64,000 nucleotides of DNA from Mytilus edulis (lineage: Eukaryota): the NCBI RefSeq assembly GCF_963676685.1, contig NC_092344.1:44206001-44270000 (forward strand), in the 5' to 3' direction. The position numbers and the translations under genes were made by a program. This document shows positions 2,100 through 25,731 of this stretch, in pieces. Position 1 is the first letter of the stretch. Each line of letters opens with the position of its first letter. The notes under the pieces are model-generated. The model worked only from the letters and a program-made list of their open reading frames with translations. It was not told where the DNA came from and did not search any database.

Positions 2100-2139
2100 G
2101 TATGACTATGAAGGATACATTGTTATTGTTATGATTATG

Positions 2140-3284: not shown

Positions 3285-4130
3285 GAAGAATAAACAACGT
3301 GATAAAAAACTTGTAGAAGGACATTATATATATATAGACTACTGACAAATCTGAAATTACTCCAGTACAATTGTTTATGACCATTCAGTTAAATGTTCAT
3401 TACAAAAAGTTACATGTATAATGATTAAGAATATGTATGTCATGTCAAATAGTCATGTGATAATACAATATTCCTGTATTTTTTCAAAAAATACTTAACA
3501 TATTAAACTGTTATTTACTTAAGCTTGTTACTGTGTTTGTTTGATGCCCCTACTGAACTCAGTTAGGGGTACATAGTGGTTCACATGTCAGTCTCTTTAT
3601 TGGTCCTTCTGTCTCACCTAACCTAATCTCAATATAATTTAAACCTAATGTCATGGGCATAAAATACAGGTAAAGTTTGATTGAATTTTTTTTAACCAGT
3701 TAAGTGATATGTTTCTTAAAATTGGAAGTATCAATACAAGATCTACAAAAATGCCAATACGACTGAAACCATTTGATGAATCCTAATATGATTTATTGCC
3801 CTAAATTATTTTACGATTATTTTCAGAATTATCTTAAAAACTAGAATTGATAAGTAGAAGCTGTAAACAGCAGTCTTACAACAATTATTTTGTCTGCTTT
3901 CAAAAGTACCATATGATTGAAAGTTGATTTTTTTATAACATGATGTCATAGACAATAAACTGCAGGTAAAGTGTAATTTTGACAGATTTGATATATCGGA
4001 TAAAGGTATGCTAAAGGAAAATGTTTACATGGTTTACCGTAACAATCGAATGGACAAAATAAAAGCATCCTTGAAATCGCAACAAGCTCCTTCGACGGAG
4101 CCTGTTGTGATTTCAAGGATGCTTGGGTAT

Positions 4131-4620
4131 CTAAAACTGACTCAAGGCAAGACGGACTGAGATGGCATCAGCACGTTTTTCAACAGAGGGTTCAAGCATA
4201 GAGGAGACAAGGGATTTTACGATGTCGCTAGTGTTTTCGGGTGAAAAGAGAGGGTGTTTGAGAGTTGAGCTTTGACCATAGAGGTTGCGTCACTATCGGA
4301 GAATGGGAAAGCTCCGAAGAGCATGACGTAGAGCATAACTCCCATACTCCACATGTCGGCTTTCATGGTGTTGTGTTCCATTCCCATAATAACTTCGGGG
4401 GCAGCGTATGGGAGGGTTCCACAAAATTCTTCAGATTCGGCAACAACAACGGTTGATTTGGCAAATCCAAAATCGGCCAGTTTGACACATCCATTTGATA
4501 ACAAGACGTTTTCTAATTTAATGTCATTGTGGGCGATTCCGTTTAAGTGGCAGTATTCGACTGCTTTGACAACTTGAGAGAAGACAGATAGGGTGGCTTC
4601 AACGGACATGAGGCCGTTTT
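4131..4620 (-). pseudogene. 5'-truncated, frameshifted kinase copy (copy 0)
   Basis: Matches the C-terminal two thirds of the array ORF; frameshift near 4240 (TCGGGTGAAAAG vs TCGGGGAAAG); broken by the element at 4621. Confidence 0.92.
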
Positions 4621-6867
4621 TATACGACCGCAAAATTTGAAAAAATTTTCGTCGTATATTGCTATCACGTTGGCGTCGTCGTCGTCCGAATACTTTTAGT
4701 TTTCGCACTCTAACTTTAGTAAAAATGAATAGAAATCTGTGAAATTTTAACACAAGGTTTATGACCACAAAAGGAAGGTTGGAATTGATTTTGGGAGTTT
4801 TAGTCCCAACATTTTAGGAATTAGGGGCCAAAAAGGGCCCAAATAAGCATTTTCTTGGTTTTCGCACTATAACTTTAGTTTAAGTAAATAGAAATCTATG
4901 AAATTTTGACATAAGGTTTATGACCACAAAAGAAAGGTTGGGATTGATTTTGGGAGTTTTGGTTCCAACAGTTTAGGAATTAGGGGCCAAAAAAGGGCCA
5001 AAATAAGCATTATTCTTGGTTTTCGCACAATAACTTTAGTTTAAGTAAATAGAAATCAATGAAATTTTAACACAAGCATACCCGTAGCCAGGGGGGGTTC
5101 GGGGGGTTCGGACGAACCCCCCCTTGAAAACAAATAATGACTGTTAAAGTCAACGTTCTGTTCGAATTGTGACTGTAAAAGTCGAGTTTTTGAGGCCAAC
5201 GAACCCCCCTTTGGAAATTCCTGGCTACGGGCCTGACAAGGTTTATGACCACAAAAGGAAGGTTGGGATTGATTTTTGGAGTTGAGGTCACAACAGTTTA
5301 TGAACTAGGGGCCAAAAAGGGGCCCAAATAAGCATTATTTTTGGTTTTTGCACCGTAACTTTAGTATAAGTAAATAGAAATCTATGAAATTTAAACACAA
5401 GGTTTATGACCATAAAAGGAAGGTTGGGTTTGATTTTGGGAGTTTTGGTCCTTACAGTTTAGGAATAAGGGTCCCAAAGGGTCCAAAATTGAACTTTGTG
5501 TGATTTCATCAAAAATTGAATAATTGGGGTTCTTTGATATGACGAATCTAACTATGTATGTAGATTCTTAAATTTTGGTCCCGTTTTCAAATTGGTCTAC
5601 ATTAAGATCCAAAGGGTCCAAAATTAAACTTAGTTTGATTTTAACAAAAATTGAATCCTTGGGGTTCTTTGATATGCTGAATTTAAAAATGTACTTAGAT
5701 TTTTAATTATTGGCCTAGTTTTCAAGTTGGTCCAAATGGGGGTCCAAAATTAAACTTTGTTTGATTTCATCAAAAATTGAATAAATGGGTTCTTTGATAT
5801 GCCAAATCTAACTGTGTATGTAGATTCTTAATTTTTGGTCCAGTTTTCAAATTGGTCTACATTAAGGTCCAAAGGGTCCAAAATTAAACTAAGTTTGATT
5901 TTAACAAAAATTAAATTCTTGGGCTTATTTGATATGCTTTATCTAAATATGTACTTTGATTTTTGATTATGGGCCCAGTTTTCAAGTTGGTCCAAATCAG
6001 GATTCCATATCAAGTATTGTGCAATAGCAAGAAATTTTCAATTGCACAGTATTGCACAATAGCAAGAAATATCTAATTGCACAATATTGTGCAATAGCAA
6101 TTAATTTTCAATTGGAGTTATCTTTCTTTGTATAGAATAGTAGTTGATAATATATGTTGGAAATTTGCCAGACATGACTATGATGTCATTTTCTATTTTT
6201 ATTTGCCAATAACTTTATGTAAATAACTTCATTGGAAATTTGCCAATATAAAATGTTGCTGATGAAGCTGTTTTTCCTTATCTTATCTAAAATGTTTTTA
6301 GATAATGTATGTTGGACATTTGCCAGACATGACTATGATGTCATTTTCTATTTTTATTTGCCAATAACTTTATGTAAATAACTTCATTGGAAATTTGCCA
6401 ATATAAAATGTTGCTGATGAAGTTTTTTTTATTGTTTTATACAATAAACAATGTATATTCACTTTTACTACCAACCAATCTTTACCATTCAGTGATAACA
6501 AGCACTTTATTTTACATTTTAATATTTTATGATGTATTTAAAAGAGTAGTTATTGTTGCAAACTCCATTAGAAATTTGACTTGATATCAGTTTTGGAAAA
6601 AAGGGAAACGGGGATGTGAAAAAGGGGGGGGGGGTAAATTTTTCTCATTTCAGATTTCATAAATAAAAAGAAAATTTCTTCAAACATTTTTTTGAGAGGA
6701 TTAATATTCAACAGCATAGTGAATTGCTAAAAGGCAAAAACAAACTTTTAAGTTCATTAGACCACATTCATTCTGTGTCAGAAACCTATGCTGTGTCAAC
6801 TATTTAATTTTAGATTTAAAAAGTTTGAAGAAGAAATCTTTAATTGTAAAATTTGTAAAATCTTGAC
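4621..6867 (+). mobile_element. Non-autonomous Helentron/HINE (DINE-like) element, 3'-truncated
   Basis: Starts in a T-run with TATACGAC...GTCGTATA inverted repeat and a (GTC)n microsatellite, then internal tandem repeats. Lacks the terminal hairpin seen in the related copy at ~2920-2950. Confidence 0.75.
5077..5235. mobile_element. 159-bp MITE nested in the HINE
   Basis: TIRs CATACCCGTAGCCAGG / CCTGGCTACGGGCCTG; 5-bp target duplication ACAAG at 5072-5076 and 5236-5240. Confidence 0.88.
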
Positions 6868-6919
6868 AGGTATGCTAAAGGAAAATGTTTACATGGTTTA
6901 CCGTAACAATCGAATGGAC

Positions 6920-6988
6920 AAAAAAAAAGCATCCTTGAAATCGCAACAAGCTCCTACGACGGAGCCTGTTGTGATTTCAAGGATGCTT
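6920..6988 (-). terminator. 28-bp stem-loop plus T9/T10 tract just after the kinase stop codon (one per unit); putative 3'-end formation element
   Basis: Arms 6927-6954 and 6961-6988 (26/28 Watson-Crick), 6-nt loop, A-run 6920-6928 on +. Structure is certain; function is inferred. Confidence 0.6.
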
Positions 6989-6994
6989 GGGTAT

Positions 6995-7732
6995 CTAAAA
7001 CTGACTCAAGGCAAGACGGACTGAGATGGCATCAGCACGTTTTTCAACAGAGGGTTCAAGCATAGAGGAGACAAGGGATTTTACGATGTCGCTAGTGTTT
7101 TCGGGGAAAGAGAGGGTGTTTGAGAGTTGAGCTTTGACCATAGAGGTTGCGTCACTATCGGAGAATGGGAAAGCTCCGAAGAGCATGACGTAGAGCATAA
7201 CTCCCATACTCCACATGTCGGCTTTCATGGTGTTGTGTTCCATTCCCATAATAACTTCGGGGGCAGCGTATGGGAGGGTTCCACAAAATTCTTCAGATTC
7301 GGCAACAACAACGGTTGATTTGGCAAATCCAAAATCGGCCAGTTTGACACATCCATTTGATAACAAGACGTTTTCTAATTTAATGTCATTGTGGGCGATT
7401 CCGTTTAAGTGGCAGTATTCGACTGCTTTGACAACTTGAGAGAAGACAGATAGGGTGGCTTCAACGGACATGAGGCCGTTTTTCATTATGTATTCAAAAA
7501 CATCTCCGAATTCAGCGAATTCCATCAAAACGAAGGCAAATTCTTCGGCTTCGATGATTTCAATGGCTTCGACAATGTTTTCGTGTTTGAGGCTGAGGAA
7601 AGCTTCAAACTCAGTAGAGGTTTTGAGGACTTTTTTAATTGCAACTTTACCGAATACTTCGCTAGAGGCGGAGAAAACTTCTTCAGTTAGGGCTACAACG
7701 TTTGAAAGTCCACTGTTCAATAAAAATTCCAT
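6995..7732 (-). CDS. Intronless Ser/Thr kinase, CAMK group (TSSK/AMPK-like), copy 1
   Basis: 245 aa; VAIK, alphaC Glu, HNDIKLEN, DFG, FCGTLPYAAPE, DMWSMGV, subdomain XI Arg. Confidence 0.92.
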   Translation of the reverse strand: MEFLLNSGLSNVVALTEEVFSASSEVFGKVAIKKVLKTSTEFEAFLSLKHENIVEAIEIIEAEEFAFVLMEFAEFGDVFEYIMKNGLMSVEATLSVFSQVVKAVEYCHLNGIAHNDIKLENVLLSNGCVKLADFGFAKSTVVVAESEEFCGTLPYAAPEVIMGMEHNTMKADMWSMGVMLYVMLFGAFPFSDSDATSMVKAQLSNTLSFPENTSDIVKSLVSSMLEPSVEKRADAISVRLALSQF

Positions 7733-7740
7733 TTTAAATT

Positions 7741-7795
7741 GGCGTGAATTTAGTGTAATAAAGGTATCAAAATACTGAAATTCACGCCTTATATA
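7741..7795 (-). promoter_or_regulatory. TATA box and adjacent inverted repeat upstream of the kinase ATG (one per unit)
   Basis: Minus strand TATATAA (7795-7789), then GGCGTGAATTT...AAATTCACGCC (7788-7741), then ATG at 7732. Confidence 0.6.
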
Positions 7796-8861
7796 GTGAT
7801 ATGGCTGCTACGGACTGTTCCAATAATTGATGCTCAAGGGTGGAAAGTTCAAATAAAGGCTTTCTTACACAATAAAACAGTACATTATTGAACAATCTCC
7901 CCTTTTCATTAATGGTAACTACTCTTACAAACGGTAAACAAAGTATTTGGTTGTACTAGGGCATTTATCTTATAAGTTTACCGTGTTGCCTTTTAACTGT
8001 GGTGTTTACCGTAACCATAAACTTTTACGATAAAGGTTTGCCGTAACCCAACAAGTCATTATACAGTTCAGTTTACCGTTTCGTCGTATGCAAAAATTAC
8101 CACAGCAAGCCAAATGTAAACCGATGAAATCATTTTCGTTTTAAAAGAAGATATGTGTTACCAATATATTTAAGTTATTGGGATTAGAACACGATTCCAT
8201 AAAATATATAACTATGGACTGACCATAAATTCTTGTTTACTGTAACCACATGAAATCGGTTACAAAGCCGATTCTCAAACCTTCAATACAAAGAAAGTTA
8301 GAGGATTGTTAGAGAATAATAGTCAACTTGTTTTCCATTTCTCCCCAAACCCATGAACCTCCGGCTGTAATTTTAAAATGCATTCTTGTTTACCGTAACC
8401 GCTCAATATATTAGTCCCATAATCCCATTATCACAATTAGAATATCTTATGTTATCCTTATAAGCTACAGCTTGCTTTGTTACGGGATTGTGCGGTGATA
8501 CGGTAAACTAGAATAACAATTAATGAATAGACGAAGTCGTAGCTTGCGCCTTCTAATTTTCTGTTTCTCTGCATTCAAGGTTTTTCGGAAGAAACCATTT
8601 TTAATTCACGTCACAGTAAGTCTATTAATGAAAATAGAATGAGTTTGTTGAAACAAAGAAGATGGGAAGATGAATGGAATATAAAATTGATTGATACAAT
8701 TATGTTTACCGTACCCTTATATTGTATCGGATAAAGGTATGCTAAAGGAAAATGTTTACATGGTTTACCGTAACAATCGAATGGACAAAAAAAAAGCATC
8801 CTTGAAATCGCAACAAGCTCCTACGACGGAGCCTGTTGTGATTTCAAGGATGCTTGGGTAT

Positions 8862-9599
8862 CTAAAACTGACTCAAGGCAAGACGGACTGAGATGGCATC
8901 AGCACGTTTTTCAACAGAGGGTTCAAGCATAGAGGAGACAAGGGATTTTACGATGTCGCTAGTGTTTTCGGGGAAAGAGAGGGTGTTTGAGAGTTGAGCT
9001 TTGACCATAGAGGTTGCGTCACTATCGGAGAATGGGAAAGCTCCGAAGAGCATGACGTAGAGCATAACTCCCATACTCCACATGTCGGCTTTCATGGTGT
9101 TGTGTTCCATTCCCATAATAACTTCGGGGGCAGCGTATGGGAGGGTTCCACAAAATTCTTCAGATTCGGCAACAACAACGGTTGATTTGGCAAATCCAAA
9201 ATCGGCCAGTTTGACACATCCATTTGATAACAAGACGTTTTCTAATTTAATGTCATTGTGGGCGATTCCGTTTAAGTGGCAGTATTCGACTGCTTTGACA
9301 ACTTGAGAGAAGACAGATAGGGTGGCTTCAACGGACATGAGGCCGTTTTTCATTATGTATTCAAAAACATCTCCGAATTCAGCGAATTCCATCAAAACGA
9401 AGGCAAATTCTTCGGCTTCGATGATTTCAATGGCTTCGACAATGTTTTCGTGTTTGAGGCTGAGGAAAGCTTCAAACTCAGTAGAGGTTTTGAGGACTTT
9501 TTTAATTGCAACTTTACCGAATACTTCGCTAGAGGCGGAGAAAACTTCTTCAGTTAGGGCTACAACGTTTGAAAGTCCACTGTTCAATAAAAATTCCAT
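8862..9599 (-). CDS. Array kinase copy 2
   Basis: Identical 245-aa translation. Confidence 0.92.
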   Translation of the reverse strand: MEFLLNSGLSNVVALTEEVFSASSEVFGKVAIKKVLKTSTEFEAFLSLKHENIVEAIEIIEAEEFAFVLMEFAEFGDVFEYIMKNGLMSVEATLSVFSQVVKAVEYCHLNGIAHNDIKLENVLLSNGCVKLADFGFAKSTVVVAESEEFCGTLPYAAPEVIMGMEHNTMKADMWSMGVMLYVMLFGAFPFSDSDATSMVKAQLSNTLSFPENTSDIVKSLVSSMLEPSVEKRADAISVRLALSQF

Positions 9600-10728
9600 T
9601 TTAAATTGGCGTGGATTTAGTGTAATAAAGGTATCAAAATACTGAAATTCACGCCTTATATAGTGATATGGCTGCTACGGACTGTTCCAATAATTGATGC
9701 TCAAGGGTGGAAAGTTCAAATAAAGGCTTTCTTACACAATAAAACAGTACATTATTGAACAATCTCCCCTTTTCATTAATGGTAACTACTCTTACAAACG
9801 GTAAACAAAGTATTTGGTTGTACTAGGGCATTTATCTTATAAGTTTACCGTGTTGCCTTTTAACTGTGGTGTTTACCGTAACCATAAACTTTTACGATAA
9901 AGGTTTGCCGTAACCCAACAAGTCATTATACAGTTCAGTTTACCGTTTCGTCGTATGCAAAAATTACCACAGCAAGCCAAATGTAAACCGATGAAATCAT
10001 TTTCGTTTTAAAAGAAGATATGTGTTACCAATATATTTAAGTTATTGGGATTAGAACACGATTCCATAAAATATATAACTATGGACTGACCATAAATTCT
10101 TGTTTACTGTAACCACATGAAATCGGTTACAAAGCCGATTCTCAAACCTTCAATACAAAGAAAGTTAGAGGATTGTTAGAGAATAATAGTCAACTTGTTT
10201 TCCATTTCTCCCCAAACCCATGAACCTCCGGCTGTAATTTTAAAATGCATTCTTGTTTACCGTAACCGCTCAATATATTAGTCCCATAATCCCATTATCA
10301 CAATTAGAATATCTTATGTTATCCTTATAAGCTACAGCTTGCTTTGTTACGGGATTGTGCGGTGATACGGTAAACTAGAATAACAATTAATGAATAGACG
10401 AAGTCGTAGCTTGCGCCTTCTAATTTTCTGTTTCTCTGCATTCAAGGTTTTTCGGAAGAAACCATTTTTAATTCACGTCACAGTAAGTCTATTAATGAAA
10501 ATAGAATGAGTTTGTTGAAACAAAGAAGATGGGAAGATGAATGGAATATAAAATTGATTGATACAATTATGTTTACCGTACCCTTATATTGTATCGGATA
10601 AAGGTATGCTAAAGGAAAATGTTTACATGGTTTACCGTAACAATCGAATGGACAAAAAAAAAGCATCCTTGAAATCGCAACAAGCTCCTACGACGGAGCC
10701 TGTTGTGATTTCAAGGATGCTTGGGTAT

Positions 10729-11466
10729 CTAAAACTGACTCAAGGCAAGACGGACTGAGATGGCATCAGCACGTTTTTCAACAGAGGGTTCAAGCATAGA
10801 GGAGACAAGGGATTTTACGATGTCGCTAGTGTTTTCGGGGAAAGAGAGGGTGTTTGAGAGTTGAGCTTTGACCATAGAGGTTGCGTCACTATCGGAGAAT
10901 GGGAAAGCTCCGAAGAGCATGACGTAGAGCATAACTCCCATACTCCACATGTCGGCTTTCATGGTGTTGTGTTCCATTCCCATAATAACTTCGGGGGCAG
11001 CGTATGGGAGGGTTCCACAAAATTCTTCAGATTCGGCAACAACAACGGTTGATTTGGCAAATCCAAAATCGGCCAGTTTGACACATCCATTTGATAACAA
11101 GACGTTTTCTAATTTAATGTCATTGTGGGCGATTCCGTTTAAGTGGCAGTATTCGACTGCTTTGACAACTTGAGAGAAGACAGATAGGGTGGCTTCAACG
11201 GACATGAGGCCGTTTTTCATTATGTATTCAAAAACATCTCCGAATTCAGCGAATTCCATCAAAACGAAGGCAAATTCTTCGGCTTCGATGATTTCAATGG
11301 CTTCGACAATGTTTTCGTGTTTGAGGCTGAGGAAAGCTTCAAACTCAGTAGAGGTTTTGAGGACTTTTTTAATTGCAACTTTACCGAATACTTCGCTAGA
11401 GGCGGAGAAAACTTCTTCAGTTAGGGCTACAACGTTTGAAAGTCCACTGTTCAATAAAAATTCCAT
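10729..11466 (-). CDS. Array kinase copy 3
   Basis: Identical 245-aa translation. Confidence 0.92.
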   Translation of the reverse strand: MEFLLNSGLSNVVALTEEVFSASSEVFGKVAIKKVLKTSTEFEAFLSLKHENIVEAIEIIEAEEFAFVLMEFAEFGDVFEYIMKNGLMSVEATLSVFSQVVKAVEYCHLNGIAHNDIKLENVLLSNGCVKLADFGFAKSTVVVAESEEFCGTLPYAAPEVIMGMEHNTMKADMWSMGVMLYVMLFGAFPFSDSDATSMVKAQLSNTLSFPENTSDIVKSLVSSMLEPSVEKRADAISVRLALSQF

Positions 11467-12596
11467 TTTAAATTGGCGTGGATTTAGTGTAATAAAGGTA
11501 TCAAAATACTGAAATTCACGCCTTATATAGTGATATGGCTGCTACGGACTGTTCCAATAATTGATGCTCAAGGGTGGAAAGTTCAAATAAAGGCTTTCTT
11601 ACACAATAAAACAGTACATTATTGAACAATCTCCCCTTTTCATTAATGGTAACTACTCTTACAAACGGTAAACAAAGTATTTGGTTGTACTAGGGCATTT
11701 ATCTTATAAGTTTACCGTGTTGCCTTTTAACTGTGGTGTTTACCGTAACCATAAACTTTTACGATAAAGGTTTGCCGTAACCCAACAAGTCATTATACAG
11801 TTCAGTTTACCGTTTCGTCGTATGCAATAATTACCACAGCAAGCCAAATGTAAACCGATGAAATCATTTTCGTTTTAAAAGAAGATATGTGTTACCAATA
11901 TATTTAAGTTATTGGGATTAGAACACGATTCCACAAAATATATAACTATGGACTGACCATAAATTCTTGTTTACTGTAACCACATGAAATCGGTTACAAA
12001 GCCGATTCTCAAACCTTCAATACAAAGAAAGTTAGAGGATTGTTAGAGAATAATAGTCAACTTGTTTTCCATTTCTCCCCAAACCCATGAACCTCCGGCT
12101 GTAATTTTAAAATGCATTCTTGTTTACCGTAACCGCTCAATATATTAGTCCCATAATCCCATTATCACAATTAGAATATCTTATGTTATCCTTATAAGCT
12201 ACAGCTTGCTTTGTTACGGGATTGTGCGGTGATACGGTAAACTAGAATAACAATTAATGAATAGACTAAGTCGTAGCTTGCGCCTTCTAATTTTCTGTTT
12301 CTCTGCATTCAAGGTTTTTCGGAAGAAACCATTTTTAATTCACGTCACAGTAAGTCTATTAATGAAAATAGAATGAGTTTGTTGAAACAAAGAAGATGGG
12401 AAGATGAATGGAATATAAAATTGATTGATACAATTATGTTTACCGTACCCTTATATTGTATCGGATAAAGGTATGCTAAAGGAAAATGTTTACATGGTTT
12501 ACCGTAACAATCGAATGGACAAAAAAAAAAGCATCCTTGAAATCGCAACAAGCTCCTACGACGGAGCCTGTTGTGATTTCAAGGATGCTTGGGTAT

Positions 12597-13334
12597 CTAA
12601 AACTGACTCAAGGCAAGACGGACTGAGATGGCATCAGCACGTTTTTCAACAGAGGGTTCAAGCATAGAGGAGACAAGGGATTTTACGATGTCGCTAGTGT
12701 TTTCGGGGAAAGAGAGGGTGTTTGAGAGTTGAGCTTTGACCATAGAGGTTGCGTCACTATCGGAGAATGGGAAAGCTCCGAAGAGCATGACGTAGAGCAT
12801 AACTCCCATACTCCACATGTCGGCTTTCATGGTGTTGTGTTCCATTCCCATAATAACTTCGGGGGCAGCGTATGGGAGGGTTCCACAAAATTCTTCAGAT
12901 TCGGCAACAACAACGGTTGATTTGGCAAATCCAAAATCGGCCAGTTTGACACATCCATTTGATAACAAGACGTTTTCTAATTTAATGTCATTGTGGGCGA
13001 TTCCGTTTAAGTGGCAGTATTCGACTGCTTTGACAACTTGAGAGAAGACAGATAGGGTGGCTTCAACGGACATGAGGCCGTTTTTCATTATGTATTCAAA
13101 AACATCTCCGAATTCAGCGAATTCCATCAAAACGAAGGCAAATTCTTCGGCTTCGATGATTTCAATGGCTTCGACAATGTTTTCGTGTTTGAGGCTGAGG
13201 AAAGCTTCAAACTCAGTAGAGGTTTTGAGGACTTTTTTAATTGCAACTTTACCGAATACTTCGCTAGAGGCGGAGAAAACTTCTTCAGTTAGGGCTACAA
13301 CGTTTGAAAGTCCACTGTTCAATAAAAATTCCAT
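12597..13334 (-). CDS. Array kinase copy 4
   Basis: Identical 245-aa translation. Confidence 0.92.
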   Translation of the reverse strand: MEFLLNSGLSNVVALTEEVFSASSEVFGKVAIKKVLKTSTEFEAFLSLKHENIVEAIEIIEAEEFAFVLMEFAEFGDVFEYIMKNGLMSVEATLSVFSQVVKAVEYCHLNGIAHNDIKLENVLLSNGCVKLADFGFAKSTVVVAESEEFCGTLPYAAPEVIMGMEHNTMKADMWSMGVMLYVMLFGAFPFSDSDATSMVKAQLSNTLSFPENTSDIVKSLVSSMLEPSVEKRADAISVRLALSQF

Positions 13335-14464
13335 TTTAAATTGGCGTGGATTTAGTGTAATAAAGGTATCAAAATACTGAAATTCACGCCTTATATAGTG
13401 ATATGGCTGCTACGGACTGTTCCAATAATTGATGCTCAAGGGTGGAAAGTTCAAATAAAGGCTTTCTTACACAATAAAACAGTACATTATTGAACAATCT
13501 CCCCTTTTCATTAATGGTAACTACTCTTACAAACGGTAAACAAAGTATTTGGTTGTACTAGGGCATTTATCTTATAAGTTTACCGTGTTGCCTTTTAACT
13601 GTGGTGTTTACCGTAACCATAAACTTTTACGATAAAGGTTTGCCGTAACCCAACAAGTCATTATACAGTTCAGTTTACCGTTTCGTCGTATGCAATAATT
13701 ACCACAGCAAGCCAAATGTAAACCGATGAAATCATTTTCGTTTTAAAAGAAGATATGTGTTACCAATATATTTAAGTTATTGGGATTAGAACACGATTCC
13801 ACAAAATATATAACTATGGACTGACCATAAATTCTTGTTTACTGTAACCACATGAAATCGGTTACAAAGCCGATTCTCAAACCTTCAATACAAAGAAAGT
13901 TAGAGGATTGTTAGAGAATAATAGTCAACTTGTTTTCCATTTCTCCCCAAACCCATGAACCTCCGGCTGTAATTTTAAAATGCATTCTTGTTTACCGTAA
14001 CCGCTCAATATATTAGTCCCATAATCCCATTATCACAATTAGAATATCTTATGTTATCCTTATAAGCTACAGCTTGCTTTGTTACGGGATTGTGCGGTGA
14101 TACGGTAAACTAGAATAACAATTAATGAATAGACTAAGTCGTAGCTTGCGCCTTCTAATTTTCTGTTTCTCTGCATTCAAGGTTTTTCGGAAGAAACCAT
14201 TTTTAATTCACGTCACAGTAAGTCTATTAATGAAAATAGAATGAGTTTGTTGAAACAAAGAAGATGGGAAGATGAATGGAATATAAAATTGATTGATACA
14301 ATTATGTTTACCGTACCCTTATATTGTATCGGATAAAGGTATGCTAAAGGAAAATGTTTACATGGTTTACCGTAACAATCGAATGGACAAAAAAAAAAGC
14401 ATCCTTGAAATCGCAACAAGCTCCTACGACGGAGCCTGTTGTGATTTCAAGGATGCTTGGGTAT

Positions 14465-15202
14465 CTAAAACTGACTCAAGGCAAGACGGACTGAGATGGC
14501 ATCAGCACGTTTTTCAACAGAGGGTTCAAGCATAGAGGAGACAAGGGATTTTACGATGTCGCTAGTGTTTTCGGGGAAAGAGAGGGTGTTTGAGAGTTGA
14601 GCTTTGACCATAGAGGTTGCGTCACTATCGGAGAATGGGAAAGCTCCGAAGAGCATGACGTAGAGCATAACTCCCATACTCCACATGTCGGCTTTCATGG
14701 TGTTGTGTTCCATTCCCATAATAACTTCGGGGGCAGCGTATGGGAGGGTTCCACAAAATTCTTCAGATTCGGCAACAACAACGGTTGATTTGGCAAATCC
14801 AAAATCGGCCAGTTTGACACATCCATTTGATAACAAGACGTTTTCTAATTTAATGTCATTGTGGGCGATTCCGTTTAAGTGGCAGTATTCGACTGCTTTG
14901 ACAACTTGAGAGAAGACAGATAGGGTGGCTTCAACGGACATGAGGCCGTTTTTCATTATGTATTCAAAAACATCTCCGAATTCAGCGAATTCCATCAAAA
15001 CGAAGGCAAATTCTTCGGCTTCGATGATTTCAATGGCTTCGACAATGTTTTCGTGTTTGAGGCTGAGGAAAGCTTCAAACTCAGTAGAGGTTTTGAGGAC
15101 TTTTTTAATTGCAACTTTACCGAATACTTCGCTAGAGGCGGAGAAAACTTCTTCAGTTAGGGCTACAACGTTTGAAAGTCCACTGTTCAATAAAAATTCC
15201 AT
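14465..15202 (-). CDS. Array kinase copy 5
   Basis: Identical 245-aa translation. Confidence 0.92.
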   Translation of the reverse strand: MEFLLNSGLSNVVALTEEVFSASSEVFGKVAIKKVLKTSTEFEAFLSLKHENIVEAIEIIEAEEFAFVLMEFAEFGDVFEYIMKNGLMSVEATLSVFSQVVKAVEYCHLNGIAHNDIKLENVLLSNGCVKLADFGFAKSTVVVAESEEFCGTLPYAAPEVIMGMEHNTMKADMWSMGVMLYVMLFGAFPFSDSDATSMVKAQLSNTLSFPENTSDIVKSLVSSMLEPSVEKRADAISVRLALSQF

Positions 15203-16332
15203 TTTAAATTGGCGTGGATTTAGTGTAATAAAGGTATCAAAATACTGAAATTCACGCCTTATATAGTGATATGGCTGCTACGGACTGTTCCAATAATTGA
15301 TGCTCAAGGGTGGAAAGTTCAAATAAAGGCTTTCTTACACAATAAAACAGTACATTATTGAACAATCTCCCCTTTTCATTAATGGTAACTACTCTTACAA
15401 ACGGTAAACAAAGTATTTGGTTGTACTAGGGCATTTATCTTATAAGTTTACCGTGTTGCCTTTTAACTGTGGTGTTTACCGTAACCATAAACTTTTACGA
15501 TAAAGGTTTGCCGTAACCCAACAAGTCATTATACAGTTCAGTTTACCGTTTCGTCGTATGCAATAATTACCACAGCAAGCCAAATGTAAACCGATGAAAT
15601 CATTTTCGTTTTAAAAGAAGATATGTGTTACCAATATATTTAAGTTATTGGGATTAGAACACGATTCCACAAAATATATAACTATGGACTGACCATAAAT
15701 TCTTGTTTACTGTAACCACATGAAATCGGTTACAAAGCCGATTCTCAAACCTTCAATACAAAGAAAGTTAGAGGATTGTTAGAGAATAATAGTCAACTTG
15801 TTTTCCATTTCTCCCCAAACCCATGAACCTCCGGCTGTAATTTTAAAATGCATTCTTGTTTACCGTAACCGCTCAATATATTAGTCCCATAATCCCATTA
15901 TCACAATTAGAATATCTTATGTTATCCTTATAAGCTACAGCTTGCTTTGTTACGGGATTGTGCGGTGATACGGTAAACTAGAATAACAATTAATGAATAG
16001 ACTAAGTCGTAGCTTGCGCCTTCTAATTTTCTGTTTCTCTGCATTCAAGGTTTTTCGGAAGAAACCATTTTTAATTCACGTCACAGTAAGTCTATTAATG
16101 AAAATAGAATGAGTTTGTTGAAACAAAGAAGATGGGAAGATGAATGGAATATAAAATTGATTGATACAATTATGTTTACCGTACCCTTATATTGTATCGG
16201 ATAAAGGTATGCTAAAGGAAAATGTTTACATGGTTTACCGTAACAATCGAATGGACAAAAAAAAAAGCATCCTTGAAATCGCAACAAGCTCCTACGACGG
16301 AGCCTGTTGTGATTTCAAGGATGCTTGGGTAT

Positions 16333-17070
16333 CTAAAACTGACTCAAGGCAAGACGGACTGAGATGGCATCAGCACGTTTTTCAACAGAGGGTTCAAGCA
16401 TAGAGGAGACAAGGGATTTTACGATGTCGCTAGTGTTTTCGGGGAAAGAGAGGGTGTTTGAGAGTTGAGCTTTGACCATAGAGGTTGCGTCACTATCGGA
16501 GAATGGGAAAGCTCCGAAGAGCATGACGTAGAGCATAACTCCCATACTCCACATGTCGGCTTTCATGGTGTTGTGTTCCATTCCCATAATAACTTCGGGG
16601 GCAGCGTATGGGAGGGTTCCACAAAATTCTTCAGATTCGGCAACAACAACGGTTGATTTGGCAAATCCAAAATCGGCCAGTTTGACACATCCATTTGATA
16701 ACAAGACGTTTTCTAATTTAATGTCATTGTGGGCGATTCCGTTTAAGTGGCAGTATTCGACTGCTTTGACAACTTGAGAGAAGACAGATAGGGTGGCTTC
16801 AACGGACATGAGGCCGTTTTTCATTATGTATTCAAAAACATCTCCGAATTCAGCGAATTCCATCAAAACGAAGGCAAATTCTTCGGCTTCGATGATTTCA
16901 ATGGCTTCGACAATGTTTTCGTGTTTGAGGCTGAGGAAAGCTTCAAACTCAGTAGAGGTTTTGAGGACTTTTTTAATTGCAACTTTACCGAATACTTCGC
17001 TAGAGGCGGAGAAAACTTCTTCAGTTAGGGCTACAACGTTTGAAAGTCCACTGTTCAATAAAAATTCCAT
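16333..17070 (-). CDS. Array kinase copy 6
   Basis: Identical 245-aa translation. Confidence 0.92.
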   Translation of the reverse strand: MEFLLNSGLSNVVALTEEVFSASSEVFGKVAIKKVLKTSTEFEAFLSLKHENIVEAIEIIEAEEFAFVLMEFAEFGDVFEYIMKNGLMSVEATLSVFSQVVKAVEYCHLNGIAHNDIKLENVLLSNGCVKLADFGFAKSTVVVAESEEFCGTLPYAAPEVIMGMEHNTMKADMWSMGVMLYVMLFGAFPFSDSDATSMVKAQLSNTLSFPENTSDIVKSLVSSMLEPSVEKRADAISVRLALSQF

Positions 17071-18200
17071 TTTAAATTGGCGTGGATTTAGTGTAATAAA
17101 GGTATCAAAATACTGAAATTCACGCCTTATATAGTGATATGGCTGCTACGGACTGTTCCAATAATTGATGCTCAAGGGTGGAAAGTTCAAATAAAGGCTT
17201 TCTTACACAATAAAACAGTACATTATTGAACAATCTCCCCTTTTCATTAATGGTAACTACTCTTACAAACGGTAAACAAAGTATTTGGTTGTACTAGGGC
17301 ATTTATCTTATAAGTTTACCGTGTTGCCTTTTAACTGTGGTGTTTACCGTAACCATAAACTTTTACGATAAAGGTTTGCCGTAACCCAACAAGTCATTAT
17401 ACAGTTCAGTTTACCGTTTCGTCGTATGCAATAATTACCACAGCAAGCCAAATGTAAACCGATGAAATCATTTTCGTTTTAAAAGAAGATATGTGTTACC
17501 AATATATTTAAGTTATTGGGATTAGAACACGATTCCACAAAATATATAACTATGGACTGACCATAAATTCTTGTTTACTGTAACCACATGAAATCGGTTA
17601 CAAAGCCGATTCTCAAACCTTCAATACAAAGAAAGTTAGAGGATTGTTAGAGAATAATAGTCAACTTGTTTTCCATTTCTCCCCAAACCCATGAACCTCC
17701 GGCTGTAATTTTAAAATGCATTCTTGTTTACCGTAACCGCTCAATATATTAGTCCCATAATCCCATTATCACAATTAGAATATCTTATGTTATCCTTATA
17801 AGCTACAGCTTGCTTTGTTACGGGATTGTGCGGTGATACGGTAAACTAGAATAACAATTAATGAATAGACTAAGTCGTAGCTTGCGCCTTCTAATTTTCT
17901 GTTTCTCTGCATTCAAGGTTTTTCGGAAGAAACCATTTTTAATTCACGTCACAGTAAGTCTATTAATGAAAATAGAATGAGTTTGTTGAAACAAAGAAGA
18001 TGGGAAGATGAATGGAATATAAAATTGATTGATACAATTATGTTTACCGTACCCTTATATTGTATCGGATAAAGGTATGCTAAAGGAAAATGTTTACATG
18101 GTTTACCGTAACAATCGAATGGACAAAAAAAAAAGCATCCTTGAAATCGCAACAAGCTCCTACGACGGAGCCTGTTGTGATTTCAAGGATGCTTGGGTAT

Positions 18201-18938
18201 CTAAAACTGACTCAAGGCAAGACGGACTGAGATGGCATCAGCACGTTTTTCAACAGAGGGTTCAAGCATAGAGGAGACAAGGGATTTTACGATGTCGCTA
18301 GTGTTTTCGGGGAAAGAGAGGGTGTTTGAGAGTTGAGCTTTGACCATAGAGGTTGCGTCACTATCGGAGAATGGGAAAGCTCCGAAGAGCATGACGTAGA
18401 GCATAACTCCCATACTCCACATGTCGGCTTTCATGGTGTTGTGTTCCATTCCCATAATAACTTCGGGGGCAGCGTATGGGAGGGTTCCACAAAATTCTTC
18501 AGATTCGGCAACAACAACGGTTGATTTGGCAAATCCAAAATCGGCCAGTTTGACACATCCATTTGATAACAAGACGTTTTCTAATTTAATGTCATTGTGG
18601 GCGATTCCGTTTAAGTGGCAGTATTCGACTGCTTTGACAACTTGAGAGAAGACAGATAGGGTGGCTTCAACGGACATGAGGCCGTTTTTCATTATGTATT
18701 CAAAAACATCTCCGAATTCAGCGAATTCCATCAAAACGAAGGCAAATTCTTCGGCTTCGATGATTTCAATGGCTTCGACAATGTTTTCGTGTTTGAGGCT
18801 GAGGAAAGCTTCAAACTCAGTAGAGGTTTTGAGGACTTTTTTAATTGCAACTTTACCGAATACTTCGCTAGAGGCGGAGAAAACTTCTTCAGTTAGGGCT
18901 ACAACGTTTGAAAGTCCACTGTTCAATAAAAATTCCAT
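18201..18938 (-). CDS. Array kinase copy 7
   Basis: Identical 245-aa translation. Confidence 0.92.
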   Translation of the reverse strand: MEFLLNSGLSNVVALTEEVFSASSEVFGKVAIKKVLKTSTEFEAFLSLKHENIVEAIEIIEAEEFAFVLMEFAEFGDVFEYIMKNGLMSVEATLSVFSQVVKAVEYCHLNGIAHNDIKLENVLLSNGCVKLADFGFAKSTVVVAESEEFCGTLPYAAPEVIMGMEHNTMKADMWSMGVMLYVMLFGAFPFSDSDATSMVKAQLSNTLSFPENTSDIVKSLVSSMLEPSVEKRADAISVRLALSQF

Positions 18939-20068
18939 TTTAAATTGGCGTGGATTTAGTGTAATAAAGGTATCAAAATACTGAAATTCACGCCTTATAT
19001 AGTGATATGGCTGCTACGGACTGTTCCAATAATTGATGCTCAAGGGTGGAAAGTTCAAATAAAGGCTTTCTTACACAATAAAACAGTACATTATTGAACA
19101 ATCTCCCCTTTTCATTAATGGTAACTACTCTTACAAACGGTAAACAAAGTATTTGGTTGTACTAGGGCATTTATCTTATAAGTTTACCGTGTTGCCTTTT
19201 AACTGTGGTGTTTACCGTAACCATAAACTTTTACGATAAAGGTTTGCCGTAACCCAACAAGTCATTATACAGTTCAGTTTACCGTTTCGTCGTATGCAAT
19301 AATTACCACAGCAAGCCAAATGTAAACCGATGAAATCATTTTCGTTTTAAAAGAAGATATGTGTTACCAATATATTTAAGTTATTGGGATTAGAACACGA
19401 TTCCACAAAATATATAACTATGGACTGACCATAAATTCTTGTTTACTGTAACCACATGAAATCGGTTACAAAGCCGATTCTCAAACCTTCAATACAAAGA
19501 AAGTTAGAGGATTGTTAGAGAATAATAGTCAACTTGTTTTCCATTTCTCCCCAAACCCATGAACCTCCGGCTGTAATTTTAAAATGCATTCTTGTTTACC
19601 GTAACCGCTCAATATATTAGTCCCATAATCCCATTATCACAATTAGAATATCTTATGTTATCCTTATAAGCTACAGCTTGCTTTGTTACGGGATTGTGCG
19701 GTGATACGGTAAACTAGAATAACAATTAATGAATAGACTAAGTCGTAGCTTGCGCCTTCTAATTTTCTGTTTCTCTGCATTCAAGGTTTTTCGGAAGAAA
19801 CCATTTTTAATTCACGTCACAGTAAGTCTATTAATGAAAATAGAATGAGTTTGTTGAAACAAAGAAGATGGGAAGATGAATGGAATATAAAATTGATTGA
19901 TACAATTATGTTTACCGTACCCTTATATTGTATCGGATAAAGGTATGCTAAAGGAAAATGTTTACATGGTTTACCGTAACAATCGAATGGACAAAAAAAA
20001 AAGCATCCTTGAAATCGCAACAAGCTCCTACGACGGAGCCTGTTGTGATTTCAAGGATGCTTGGGTAT

Positions 20069-20806
20069 CTAAAACTGACTCAAGGCAAGACGGACTGAGA
20101 TGGCATCAGCACGTTTTTCAACAGAGGGTTCAAGCATAGAGGAGACAAGGGATTTTACGATGTCGCTAGTGTTTTCGGGGAAAGAGAGGGTGTTTGAGAG
20201 TTGAGCTTTGACCATAGAGGTTGCGTCACTATCGGAGAATGGGAAAGCTCCGAAGAGCATGACGTAGAGCATAACTCCCATACTCCACATGTCGGCTTTC
20301 ATGGTGTTGTGTTCCATTCCCATAATAACTTCGGGGGCAGCGTATGGGAGGGTTCCACAAAATTCTTCAGATTCGGCAACAACAACGGTTGATTTGGCAA
20401 ATCCAAAATCGGCCAGTTTGACACATCCATTTGATAACAAGACGTTTTCTAATTTAATGTCATTGTGGGCGATTCCGTTTAAGTGGCAGTATTCGACTGC
20501 TTTGACAACTTGAGAGAAGACAGATAGGGTGGCTTCAACGGACATGAGGCCGTTTTTCATTATGTATTCAAAAACATCTCCGAATTCAGCGAATTCCATC
20601 AAAACGAAGGCAAATTCTTCGGCTTCGATGATTTCAATGGCTTCGACAATGTTTTCGTGTTTGAGGCTGAGGAAAGCTTCAAACTCAGTAGAGGTTTTGA
20701 GGACTTTTTTAATTGCAACTTTACCGAATACTTCGCTAGAGGCGGAGAAAACTTCTTCAGTTAGGGCTACAACGTTTGAAAGTCCACTGTTCAATAAAAA
20801 TTCCAT
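20069..20806 (-). CDS. Array kinase copy 8
   Basis: Identical 245-aa translation. Confidence 0.92.
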   Translation of the reverse strand: MEFLLNSGLSNVVALTEEVFSASSEVFGKVAIKKVLKTSTEFEAFLSLKHENIVEAIEIIEAEEFAFVLMEFAEFGDVFEYIMKNGLMSVEATLSVFSQVVKAVEYCHLNGIAHNDIKLENVLLSNGCVKLADFGFAKSTVVVAESEEFCGTLPYAAPEVIMGMEHNTMKADMWSMGVMLYVMLFGAFPFSDSDATSMVKAQLSNTLSFPENTSDIVKSLVSSMLEPSVEKRADAISVRLALSQF

Positions 20807-21936
20807 TTTAAATTGGCGTGGATTTAGTGTAATAAAGGTATCAAAATACTGAAATTCACGCCTTATATAGTGATATGGCTGCTACGGACTGTTCCAATAA
20901 TTGATGCTCAAGGGTGGAAAGTTCAAATAAAGGCTTTCTTACACAATAAAACAGTACATTATTGAACAATCTCCCCTTTTCATTAATGGTAACTACTCTT
21001 ACAAACGGTAAACAAAGTATTTGGTTGTACTAGGGCATTTATCTTATAAGTTTACCGTGTTGCCTTTTAACTGTGGTGTTTACCGTAACCATAAACTTTT
21101 ACGATAAAGGTTTGCCGTAACCCAACAAGTCATTATACAGTTCAGTTTACCGTTTCGTCGTATGCAATAATTACCACAGCAAGCCAAATGTAAACCGATG
21201 AAATCATTTTCGTTTTAAAAGAAGATATGTGTTACCAATATATTTAAGTTATTGGGATTAGAACACGATTCCACAAAATATATAACTATGGACTGACCAT
21301 AAATTCTTGTTTACTGTAACCACATGAAATCGGTTACAAAGCCGATTCTCAAACCTTCAATACAAAGAAAGTTAGAGGATTGTTAGAGAATAATAGTCAA
21401 CTTGTTTTCCATTTCTCCCCAAACCCATGAACCTCCGGCTGTAATTTTAAAATGCATTCTTGTTTACCGTAACCGCTCAATATATTAGTCCCATAATCCC
21501 ATTATCACAATTAGAATATCTTATGTTATCCTTATAAGCTACAGCTTGCTTTGTTACGGGATTGTGCGGTGATACGGTAAACTAGAATAACAATTAATGA
21601 ATAGACTAAGTCGTAGCTTGCGCCTTCTAATTTTCTGTTTCTCTGCATTCAAGGTTTTTCGGAAGAAACCATTTTTAATTCACGTCACAGTAAGTCTATT
21701 AATGAAAATAGAATGAGTTTGTTGAAACAAAGAAGATGGGAAGATGAATGGAATATAAAATTGATTGATACAATTATGTTTACCGTACCCTTATATTGTA
21801 TCGGATAAAGGTATGCTAAAGGAAAATGTTTACATGGTTTACCGTAACAATCGAATGGACAAAAAAAAAAGCATCCTTGAAATCGCAACAAGCTCCTACG
21901 ACGGAGCCTGTTGTGATTTCAAGGATGCTTGGGTAT

Positions 21937-22674
21937 CTAAAACTGACTCAAGGCAAGACGGACTGAGATGGCATCAGCACGTTTTTCAACAGAGGGTTCA
22001 AGCATAGAGGAGACAAGGGATTTTACGATGTCGCTAGTGTTTTCGGGGAAAGAGAGGGTGTTTGAGAGTTGAGCTTTGACCATAGAGGTTGCGTCACTAT
22101 CGGAGAATGGGAAAGCTCCGAAGAGCATGACGTAGAGCATAACTCCCATACTCCACATGTCGGCTTTCATGGTGTTGTGTTCCATTCCCATAATAACTTC
22201 GGGGGCAGCGTATGGGAGGGTTCCACAAAATTCTTCAGATTCGGCAACAACAACGGTTGATTTGGCAAATCCAAAATCGGCCAGTTTGACACATCCATTT
22301 GATAACAAGACGTTTTCTAATTTAATGTCATTGTGGGCGATTCCGTTTAAGTGGCAGTATTCGACTGCTTTGACAACTTGAGAGAAGACAGATAGGGTGG
22401 CTTCAACGGACATGAGGCCGTTTTTCATTATGTATTCAAAAACATCTCCGAATTCAGCGAATTCCATCAAAACGAAGGCAAATTCTTCGGCTTCGATGAT
22501 TTCAATGGCTTCGACAATGTTTTCGTGTTTGAGGCTGAGGAAAGCTTCAAACTCAGTAGAGGTTTTGAGGACTTTTTTAATTGCAACTTTACCGAATACT
22601 TCGCTAGAGGCGGAGAAAACTTCTTCAGTTAGGGCTACAACGTTTGAAAGTCCACTGTTCAATAAAAATTCCAT
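21937..22674 (-). CDS. Array kinase copy 9
   Basis: Identical 245-aa translation. Confidence 0.92.
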   Translation of the reverse strand: MEFLLNSGLSNVVALTEEVFSASSEVFGKVAIKKVLKTSTEFEAFLSLKHENIVEAIEIIEAEEFAFVLMEFAEFGDVFEYIMKNGLMSVEATLSVFSQVVKAVEYCHLNGIAHNDIKLENVLLSNGCVKLADFGFAKSTVVVAESEEFCGTLPYAAPEVIMGMEHNTMKADMWSMGVMLYVMLFGAFPFSDSDATSMVKAQLSNTLSFPENTSDIVKSLVSSMLEPSVEKRADAISVRLALSQF

Positions 22675-23804
22675 TTTAAATTGGCGTGGATTTAGTGTAA
22701 TAAAGGTATCAAAATACTGAAATTCACGCCTTATATAGTGATATGGCTGCTACGGACTGTTCCAATAATTGATGCTCAAGGGTGGAAAGTTCAAATAAAG
22801 GCTTTCTTACACAATAAAACAGTACATTATTGAACAATCTCCCCTTTTCATTAATGGTAACTACTCTTACAAACGGTAAACAAAGTATTTGGTTGTACTA
22901 GGGCATTTATCTTATAAGTTTACCGTGTTGCCTTTTAACTGTGGTGTTTACCGTAACCATAAACTTTTACGATAAAGGTTTGCCGTAACCCAACAAGTCA
23001 TTATACAGTTCAGTTTACCGTTTCGTCGTATGCAATAATTACCACAGCAAGCCAAATGTAAACCGATGAAATCATTTTCGTTTTAAAAGAAGATATGTGT
23101 TACCAATATATTTAAGTTATTGGGATTAGAACACGATTCCACAAAATATATAACTATGGACTGACCATAAATTCTTGTTTACTGTAACCACATGAAATCG
23201 GTTACAAAGCCGATTCTCAAACCTTCAATACAAAGAAAGTTAGAGGATTGTTAGAGAATAATAGTCAACTTGTTTTCCATTTCTCCCCAAACCCATGAAC
23301 CTCCGGCTGTAATTTTAAAATGCATTCTTGTTTACCGTAACCGCTCAATATATTAGTCCCATAATCCCATTATCACAATTAGAATATCTTATGTTATCCT
23401 TATAAGCTACAGCTTGCTTTGTTACGGGATTGTGCGGTGATACGGTAAACTAGAATAACAATTAATGAATAGACTAAGTCGTAGCTTGCGCCTTCTAATT
23501 TTCTGTTTCTCTGCATTCAAGGTTTTTCGGAAGAAACCATTTTTAATTCACGTCACAGTAAGTCTATTAATGAAAATAGAATGAGTTTGTTGAAACAAAG
23601 AAGATGGGAAGATGAATGGAATATAAAATTGATTGATACAATTATGTTTACCGTACCCTTATATTGTATCGGATAAAGGTATGCTAAAGGAAAATGTTTA
23701 CATGGTTTACCGTAACAATCGAATGGACAAAAAAAAAAGCATCCTTGAAATCGCAACAAGCTCCTACGACGGAGCCTGTTGTGATTTCAAGGATGCTTGG
23801 GTAT

Positions 23805-24542
23805 CTAAAACTGACTCAAGGCAAGACGGACTGAGATGGCATCAGCACGTTTTTCAACAGAGGGTTCAAGCATAGAGGAGACAAGGGATTTTACGATGTC
23901 GCTAGTGTTTTCGGGGAAAGAGAGGGTGTTTGAGAGTTGAGCTTTGACCATAGAGGTTGCGTCACTATCGGAGAATGGGAAAGCTCCGAAGAGCATGACG
24001 TAGAGCATAACTCCCATACTCCACATGTCGGCTTTCATGGTGTTGTGTTCCATTCCCATAATAACTTCGGGGGCAGCGTATGGGAGGGTTCCACAAAATT
24101 CTTCAGATTCGGCAACAACAACGGTTGATTTGGCAAATCCAAAATCGGCCAGTTTGACACATCCATTTGATAACAAGACGTTTTCTAATTTAATGTCATT
24201 GTGGGCGATTCCGTTTAAGTGGCAGTATTCGACTGCTTTGACAACTTGAGAGAAGACAGATAGGGTGGCTTCAACGGACATGAGGCCGTTTTTCATTATG
24301 TATTCAAAAACATCTCCGAATTCAGCGAATTCCATCAAAACGAAGGCAAATTCTTCGGCTTCGATGATTTCAATGGCTTCGACAATGTTTTCGTGTTTGA
24401 GGCTGAGGAAAGCTTCAAACTCAGTAGAGGTTTTGAGGACTTTTTTAATTGCAACTTTACCGAATACTTCGCTAGAGGCGGAGAAAACTTCTTCAGTTAG
24501 GGCTACAACGTTTGAAAGTCCACTGTTCAATAAAAATTCCAT
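23805..24542 (-). CDS. Array kinase copy 10
   Basis: Identical 245-aa translation. Confidence 0.92.
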   Translation of the reverse strand: MEFLLNSGLSNVVALTEEVFSASSEVFGKVAIKKVLKTSTEFEAFLSLKHENIVEAIEIIEAEEFAFVLMEFAEFGDVFEYIMKNGLMSVEATLSVFSQVVKAVEYCHLNGIAHNDIKLENVLLSNGCVKLADFGFAKSTVVVAESEEFCGTLPYAAPEVIMGMEHNTMKADMWSMGVMLYVMLFGAFPFSDSDATSMVKAQLSNTLSFPENTSDIVKSLVSSMLEPSVEKRADAISVRLALSQF

Positions 24543-25540: not shown

Positions 25541-25731
25541 GATTGTGCGGTGATACGGTAAACTAGAATAACAATTAATGAATAGACTAAGTCGTAGCTT
25601 GCGCCTTCTAATTTTCTGTTTCTCTGCATTCAAGGTTTTTCGGAAGAAACAATGCTTAATTCACGTCACAGTAAGTCTACTAATGAAAATAGAATGAGTT
25701 TGTTGAAACAAAGCAGTTGGGATGATGAATG
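25541..25731. repeat. Partial extra copy of the unit's distal spacer (245-bp period), diverged in its right part
   Basis: GATTGTGCGG... at 25296 recurs at 25541. Confidence 0.9.

Follow-up and report, generated by a model that had tools for sequence, protein, structure and literature searches.

A tandemly repeated, TSSK-related kinase of Mytilus without a glycine-rich loop, HRD arginine or activation-loop threonine

The joint loss of the HRD arginine and of the activation-loop (T-loop) threonine is a fixed trait of a real, conserved and apparently undescribed family of kinases found in Mytilus. The family came to light in the window, a stretch of 64,000 nucleotides of Mytilus edulis DNA (contig NC_092344.1, positions 44,206,001 to 44,270,000), where an intronless coding sequence on the minus strand (6995..7732, copy 1 of 10) runs from an ATG start to a TAG stop and encodes 245 amino acids. 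Its product is a minimal, CAMK-group, TSSK-related kinase. The original prediction of a bare kinase domain is borne out: the Pfam Pkinase profile (PF00069) matches the protein with 172.7 bits against a cut-off of 31.7, an AF2 model gives a complete two-lobed kinase fold, and the protein stops at the last kinase helix, with no UBA, KA1 or other tail. The profile match begins at residue 37 (profile position 44) and leaves the start of the N-lobe unmatched, which is what an abnormal first portion of this lobe would produce.

Motif changes and retained residues in the family

A first homologue search returned 23 proteins of 67–96% identity, followed by matches of at most 43%. All named family matches are from Mytilus and are labeled "TSSK3-like" or "STK22"; 15 of the 23 are ENA, Logan or NCBI proteins without a species name. 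The family is likely restricted to mussels. A profile search yielded no further member, and in a search of 1.84 billion sequences the family is present as one representative. No relative was confirmed among the IMG/VR viral contigs scanned, and a scan of JGI metagenomes gave, among the matches listed, only unrelated kinases of 28–38% identity and no family DNA. Three M. trossulus records, 94, 96 and 113 Mb long, carry copies, and other Mytilus assemblies hold several accessions for one identical protein. The family counts below rest on 16 full-length sequences, namely the window protein and 15 others that are 67–91% identical to it, with open frames of 242–267 residues. Among the database models of family members, several are cut short or scrambled; P0004, P0012 and P0016, although aligned, were left out for this reason, as were the unaligned P0001 and P0020-P0023. 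All eight read HND at the catalytic loop.

Three changes had been read from the window protein alone: no GxGxxG ahead of VAIK, a catalytic loop (HNDIKLEN) without the HRD Arg, and the glutamate of SEEFCGT in place of the activation-loop threonine. The missing glycine motif, the lost Arg and the Glu extend to all the full-length family sequences. The glycine motif is missing from 16/16 sequences. The catalytic loop (H114-N121, 7370..7393, minus strand) is of the non-RD type, with N115 in the window protein; the arginine position is filled by Asn (2 sequences), Ser (4), Cys (9) or Gly (1), and by Arg in 0/16. The T-loop site, E148 (7289..7291, minus strand), is Glu in every one of the 16. The beta3 Lys and the alphaC Glu are 8 residues apart throughout. 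Among 20 control TSSK-type kinases, the HRD Arg is found in 20, the T-loop Thr in 18 and a G-x-G-x-aromatic loop in 18, and the Lys-Glu spacing, read in 17 of them, is 19 in eleven, 17 in one and 11–15 in five short ones. Because the motif changes are family-wide, and the coding sequence is identical in all ten array copies, they are neither chance nor the lesion of a single copy. In the alignment, E148 falls on the Thr of wild-type MARK3 and on the Glu of MARK1 (PDB 6c9d) and MARK2 (PDB 2wzj). We take the latter two to be engineered T-to-E phosphomimics.

The residues needed for catalysis had been read as kept, and they are: K33, E41, D116, K118, N121 and D133 are invariant in 16/16 sequences, the DFG motif occupies residues 133–135 (7328..7336, minus strand), and the APE of the window protein lies at 157–159. 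Invariance thus holds for all six catalytic residues but for 15 of the 53 other K/D/E/N positions (a naive p of 5e-4 that ignores relatedness). H114, F134, L123, A73, D77, E120, the FCGTLPY segment and D172 are invariant as well, and K138 is present in 15 of the 16. The family has kept its catalytic, metal-binding, hinge, spine and substrate-groove residues. At the beta3 Ala position the family has Ala (7), Val (8) or Ile (1), all of them residues that active kinases tolerate there (PMC2639636). P0132, a database copy that is not among the 16, carries K118E, possibly a dead allele or a sequencing error.

The shorter Lys-Glu spacing (8 residues versus 19 in TSSKs), the shortened alphaC, the acidity and the depletion of arginine had escaped the original prediction. 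The window protein has a pI of 4.5 and a net charge of −18; across the family the pI is 4.4–5.0, the net charge −13 to −22, and the arginine count 1–5 per protein. TSSK-type controls, except four acidic short ones, have a pI of mostly about 9 and 9–33 arginines. R232 in subdomain XI (7037..7039, minus strand) is the sole arginine common to all 16 sequences, and the loss of the HRD Arg sits inside this protein-wide depletion. The four short relatives are likewise acidic yet keep HRD. Therefore, the acidity would be older than the motif changes and need not explain them, and the loss of the HRD Arg would reflect relaxed constraint as well as composition.

In place of the glycine-rich loop, DSSP and register scoring give a short beta1-beta2 turn, L15-T16-E17-E18 (7679..7690, minus strand), in which E17 and E18 are each retained in 15/16 sequences. 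The family segment L4-x-x-x-G8-F/L9 matches the TSSK segment ahead of beta1, and V19-x-x-A22 matches beta2. Three registers were scored for residues 4–15 against 18 scorable control kinases. Fifteen of the 18 scored highest with the register that drops 4 residues at the loop, and none with the register that has no indel. The MAFFT register, in which G8 is the second glycine and 7 residues are inserted, was best for just 3 of 18 and was rejected. On this alignment evidence, a deletion of 4 residues within the open reading frame most likely removed the loop, which is probably deleted and not substituted. The AF2 model from a 108-sequence alignment (pLDDT 95, pTM 0.91) has strands at 9–14, 19–24 and 28–36 and alphaC at 40–47 according to DSSP; its confidence leans on 93 ordinary kinases in the alignment, and a model from the 19-sequence family-only alignment is poor (pLDDT 63, activation segment below 50). 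The stretch from K33 to E41 (7610..7636, minus strand) leads into an alphaC of two turns, and about 11 residues ahead of this helix are missing relative to TSSKs. The model of the window protein reaches Foldseek TM-scores of 0.79–0.84, and structural comparison gives a VIA Z of 29.2 to CaMKII over 241 residues and about 28 to AMPK, DAPK1 and phosphorylase kinase.

Tandem array, spacer and expression

The gene is repeated in a tandem array of 10 units of 1,867–1,868 bp (6868..25540, minus strand), which differ from unit 5 at 0–5 internal positions. The coding sequence is identical in 10/10 copies, the others lying on the same strand at 8862-9599, 10729-11466 and 12597-13334 (copies 2-4), 14465-15202, 16333-17070 and 18201-18938 (copies 5-7), and 20069-20806, 21937-22674 and 23805-24542 (copies 8-10). 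Units 4–9 are identical over 1,868 bp, and units 1–3 each have their own differences. An eleventh copy (3994..4621, minus strand), 5'-truncated and frameshifted, keeps residues 84–245 and the 3' region and is interrupted by repeat DNA; a diverged extra piece of spacer (95%; 25541..25731) marks the right array edge. All three outer junctions between unit and other DNA (3994, 6868 and 25540) lie within 13 bp of one point of the 1,868-bp unit, and the hexamer TATCGG stands at both the start and the finish of the whole span. This clustering and the terminal hexamers suggest either a defined unit end or an inserted circle or concatemer. The observed/expected CpG ratio is 0.94–1.03 in the array unit versus 0.56 in the rest of the window; a value near 1 resembles that of germ-line-unmethylated DNA.

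Spliced host genes flank the array. To the left lie the 3' exons of a plus-strand gene (538-3284) with a Myb/SANT exon (1923-2099), presumably similar to DNAJC2/zuotin. To the right, Pfam matches outline an SFMBT-like Polycomb gene on the minus strand (about 35600-49650) with three MBT exons and a SLED exon; a long, low-complexity acidic open reading frame (48447-49643) falls within its span. Repeat elements with internal tandem cores of 135–168 or 492 bp occupy 2164-2503, 4622-6867, 29969-31357 and 41071-41726; it is the repeats at 4622-6867 that interrupt the eleventh gene copy. A plus-strand open reading frame fragment without a Pfam match (52110-52628) presumably resembles the C-terminus of a LINE reverse transcriptase.

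A TATA-like box (7788..7795, minus strand), a putative promoter element judged by its sequence, starts 63 nt upstream of the ATG. At the likely transcription start lies an 11-bp perfect inverted repeat (7741..7788; fold z −5.9, 0/200 shuffles). On the other side of the gene, a 27-bp hairpin (6927..6988, minus strand) begins 7 nt past the stop codon and runs into a U9 tract (6920-6928); its fold has an energy of −46.8 kcal/mol and a z of −9.9. Hairpins therefore flank the kinase gene on both sides, and the 3' one is of pre-miRNA size. No AATAAA occurs anywhere in the intergenic spacer, and an Rfam search of the hairpin gave no family at the gathering score, with two weak matches far below it. 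The spacer and promoter region (7733..8737) contains seven of the eight copies of a 9-bp motif, GTTTACCGT, found in each unit, starting at 7931, 7976, 8004, 8071, 8388, 8500 and 8704; the eighth starts at 6896. The window holds 82 matches to this motif, all within 4032-25563, where 0.35 would be expected in the window by chance; there are none elsewhere in the window, and several near-matches lie nearby. The motif presumably holds a forkhead-like core, and a literature search on it found no match.

Four of the 24 listed sequencing runs were aligned to the locus: X1, classed as RNA by presumption, and three raw RNA runs. X1 contigs reach a word depth of 317–895, are confined to 8837-9605 (copy 2) and cover essentially none of the spacer; elsewhere in the unit there is just one X1 contig, of depth 5.8. 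The X1 contig is collinear with the gene from within the 3' hairpin to 6 nt above the ATG and is unspliced across the ATG; that it breaks off at the hairpin may be due to the library. X1 is also rich in a more diverged paralogue, which over 137 nt shows 12 differences and has 2 gaps that compensate each other. The three raw RNA runs contain 0, 4 and 4 reads of 8.7, 8.3 and 12.7 million. The kinase gene is transcribed, and its expression is strongly restricted. Five gut metatranscriptomes of fish or invertebrates (X3, X6, X8, X10 and X11) hold 39–59% of the sampled words of the gene, no more than a lead to where its transcript is abundant. The view of an unregulated enzyme controlled mainly by gene dose overreaches, since restricted expression and eight motifs per unit point to tight transcriptional control.

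Proposed function and competing readings

We propose that the family is a mussel-lineage descendant of short, multicopy molluscan TSSK-like kinases, cut down to a 245-residue catalytic domain. The product would be an active Ser/Thr kinase that does not need activating phosphorylation, with E148 possibly pairing with the near-invariant K138 in place of the phospho-Thr/Arg pair. With the loop absent, ATP affinity or turnover would probably be poor, and a high copy number may compensate. The TATA box and the eight motif copies per unit would act as a transcriptional switch confined to a narrow cell type or stage, with the male germ line or the early embryo as the likeliest setting. With the Glu fixed, the HRD position free to vary and no tail present, post-translational control appears to have been given up in favor of transcription and copy number. 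The most speculative step concerns the substrates: the acidic surface, with the invariant D77, E120 and E148, would suit protamine-like sperm proteins or histones. The germ-line setting and the basic chromatin substrates would follow from ancestry and charge. Taken as a whole, a phosphorylation-independent kinase with probably poor ATP kinetics, controlled through transcription and copy number and probably directed at basic germ-line substrates, is the reading toward which we lean, by a narrow preference. The constitutive enzyme foreseen by the original prediction is upheld in so far as the paired loss of Arg and Thr fits T-loop independence. Canonical TSSKs need phosphorylation of the T-loop Thr for activity (PMC7401350), and in the fly dTSSK the T191A mutant is inactive, and the wild type phosphorylates the protamine-like Mst77F (PMC10164148).

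The most serious competitor, which we consider possible but clearly less probable, is a pseudokinase or decoy with an active-like locked fold, in which the T-E-E turn fills the phosphate site (compare D175 of VRK3). Such a protein would be a trap for basic substrates or for the partners of canonical TSSKs, or else an acidic chaperone. The glycine-loop motif is broken in about 4% of active human kinase domains versus about 84% of pseudokinases, whose loops often carry acidic residues; its loss together with such residues is the commonest pseudokinase mark (PMC2639636), and E17 and E18 fit it. The same source describes Ryk as inactive, with its three main catalytic residues kept and the loop missing. 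Judged from the model, a loop deletion combined with a two-turn alphaC would be harsher than most substitutions and counts against activity. Invariant substrate-groove residues are also compatible with a trap, and stoichiometric action would explain the tandem amplification well, with the high copy number supplying the amounts. Against a pseudokinase stand the beta3 Lys, the catalytic Asp and the DFG Asp, intact in all 16 sequences, together with K118 and N121, which serve only chemistry and metal binding and are invariant at 67–91% identity to the window protein; the beta3 Ala position shows no unusual residue either. In VRK3, TRIB1-3 and STK40, DFG or catalytic-loop residues have decayed as well (PMC2639636, PMC7586955). 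At the other extreme, a fully active loop-less kinase with a two-turn alphaC, expressed in histone style from mobile tandem units whose mRNA ends at a long hairpin and U-tract and not at an AATAAA site, and phosphorylating sperm or post-fertilization chromatin in bulk, is a doubtful proposition. If true, it would place the protein among the smallest canonical eukaryotic kinases.

Three further readings concern the gene more than the enzyme. Selfish germ-line kinases have a comparison case in mouse Smok/Tcr responder, and an amplified mobile kinase that biases transmission or sperm performance would fit either activity state. The homogenized array, the copies on three M. trossulus records, the long stem of the family in the tree and the outer junctions clustered at one unit point speak for such a gene; after the stem, conservation with short internal branches is unlike an arms race, and the multicopy relatives in blood clam and abalone point to a common dosage need. 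We regard this reading as improbable. It is also quite improbable that the array is a neutral passenger, a decayed TSSK retrocopy spread by unequal crossing-over, or that the assembler inflated copy number or identity. The identity of units 4–9, the damaged database models and the near-empty raw RNA runs would be explained in this way, but long open frames with the same invariant residues persist in 16 sequences down to 67% identity, other Mytilus assemblies repeat the pattern of several accessions per identical protein, units 1–3 have private differences, and expression in X1 is strong. The exact copy number is an assembly count. Finally, the open reading frame might be just the final exon of a longer gene, with a glycine-rich loop encoded further upstream, a view suggested by an in-frame, acceptor-like TTTCAG ending at 7775, by the X1 contig that stops short of it, and by database models of 275 residues. 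This view is largely refuted and has next to no credence left. Beta1 lies inside the open reading frame, where residues 4–15 match the TSSK N-terminus, and the missing residues fall between beta1 and beta2, so that no upstream exon could restore the loop. The 275-residue models add 30 collinear residues without GxGxxG, the in-frame stretch upstream has neither an ATG nor a Gly, the TATA box lies just upstream, and the 1.1-kb spacers are too small; the absence of the family from 39 longer matches is weak evidence in the same direction. Since the X1 RNA does not cover the TTTCAG at 7775, a 5'-UTR intron ending there is conceivable.

The glycine-rich loop is held to be near-essential for kinase activity, and its loss serves to call pseudokinases. 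In the mussel family, the loop is physically removed while every catalytic residue is conserved, and a Thr-to-Glu change otherwise engineered has been fixed naturally. This would represent either a minimal working kinase N-lobe or a new route to a pseudokinase. The arrays may also reveal an apparently undescribed molluscan trend toward short, tandemly arrayed TSSK-like kinases, masked by the "TSSK3-like" label; such a trend matters for mussel reproduction and for the mapping of reads in multicopy regions. Literature searches, accession included, found no paper on the family and no described mollusc subfamily with the same substitutions, in a literature whose subscription papers were mostly beyond reach. 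The accessible parts of the oyster kinome (PMC4883820) and of a scallop survey (PMC8042308) describe ordinary TSSKs. A TSTK1 has been reported from M. edulis (PMC3144882), and the primer given there does not match the window. Male-biased TSSKs of blood clam are described without structure in the available portion of PMC5608214. The portions at hand of PMC12750733 (text and supplement) and PMC13658524 (supplement) contain nothing on this family, and kinases go unmentioned in the accessible part of a developmental series on M. galloprovincialis (bioRxiv 10.1101/2023.07.27.550798).

Relation to TSSKs and other kinases

An IQ-TREE tree of 60 proteins, with 15 family rows and with no labeled MARK and no mussel canonical TSSK, recovers the family as a single clade (100/100), whose stem measures 1.28 changes per site. 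A branch with support 95/94 puts it on one side with TSSKs and short molluscan kinases. The family falls outside the named-TSSK clade (93/95), a position to be read with its long stem and unusual composition in mind, and both frog TSSK3 rows lie inside that clade, apart from the mussel family, with a long-branch caveat. The nearest ESM Atlas clusters are TSSK3 and TSSK6. Judged by the tree, then, the "TSSK3-like" label does not appear to denote orthology; given the gaps in the tree (MARKs and mussel TSSKs) and the fact that MARKs come first in PDB searches, TSSK-related is the fair label. TSSKs are testis-specific Ser/Thr kinases (TSSK1/2, 3, 4, 6 and 7), expressed in the testis after meiosis. 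With them the family shares a CAMK-group domain, the intronless gene that most of them have, the N-terminal L-x-x-x-G-aromatic motif and a Ser two residues ahead of the T-loop site. It differs in having no glycine loop and no HRD Arg, in Thr changed to Glu, in a Lys-Glu spacing of 8 versus 19, in being acidic where TSSKs are mostly basic, and in its 10-copy array. Scallop has five Tssks of 294–731 residues, with a glycine-rich ATP-binding region in five subfamilies (PMC8042308).

After the mussel family itself, the best single-domain matches in the 1.84-billion-sequence search are short kinases of 250–260 residues. Some of these are encoded by multicopy genes, in Tegillarca granosa (KUTeg_013803-013812 and others) and in Haliotis asinina. 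Like the mussel proteins, these are bare domains with near-identical copies under adjoining locus tags or accessions, and their beta3-alphaC link is shortened (11–15). Unlike the mussel family, they keep GxGxxG and HRD, and those of Tegillarca also keep the T-loop Thr and are basic (pI 8.7). On sequence grounds they appear to be its nearest relatives, and the tree gives no sister relation. In Haliotis P0263 and P0295 the T-loop Thr is gone and HRD is kept, which suggests that molluscs lost T-loop control repeatedly.

MARK, SIK, MELK and AMPK-related kinases give the top PDB sequence and Foldseek matches, and their T-loop context aligns. These kinases keep the loop and HRD; the mussel kinase has neither a tail nor an upstream-kinase site. 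Activity without T-loop phosphorylation is known from other CAMK members: phosphorylase kinase gamma has Glu at the T-loop site and keeps the HRD Arg, and DAPK and MLCK are non-RD. All of them retain the glycine loop, and calmodulin-binding tails control their activity. Like VRK3, TRIB1-3, STK40 and Ryk, the mussel kinase lacks GxGxxG and has acidic residues in its place. However, VRK3, TRIB and STK40 keep the length of the loop and lose DFG or catalytic-loop residues, whereas in the mussel kinase the loop is shortened and the catalytic motifs are whole. The inactive Ryk, like the mussel kinase, combines a missing loop with intact main catalytic residues. Yeast Cak1, an active kinase, has intact catalytic motifs and no G-loop.
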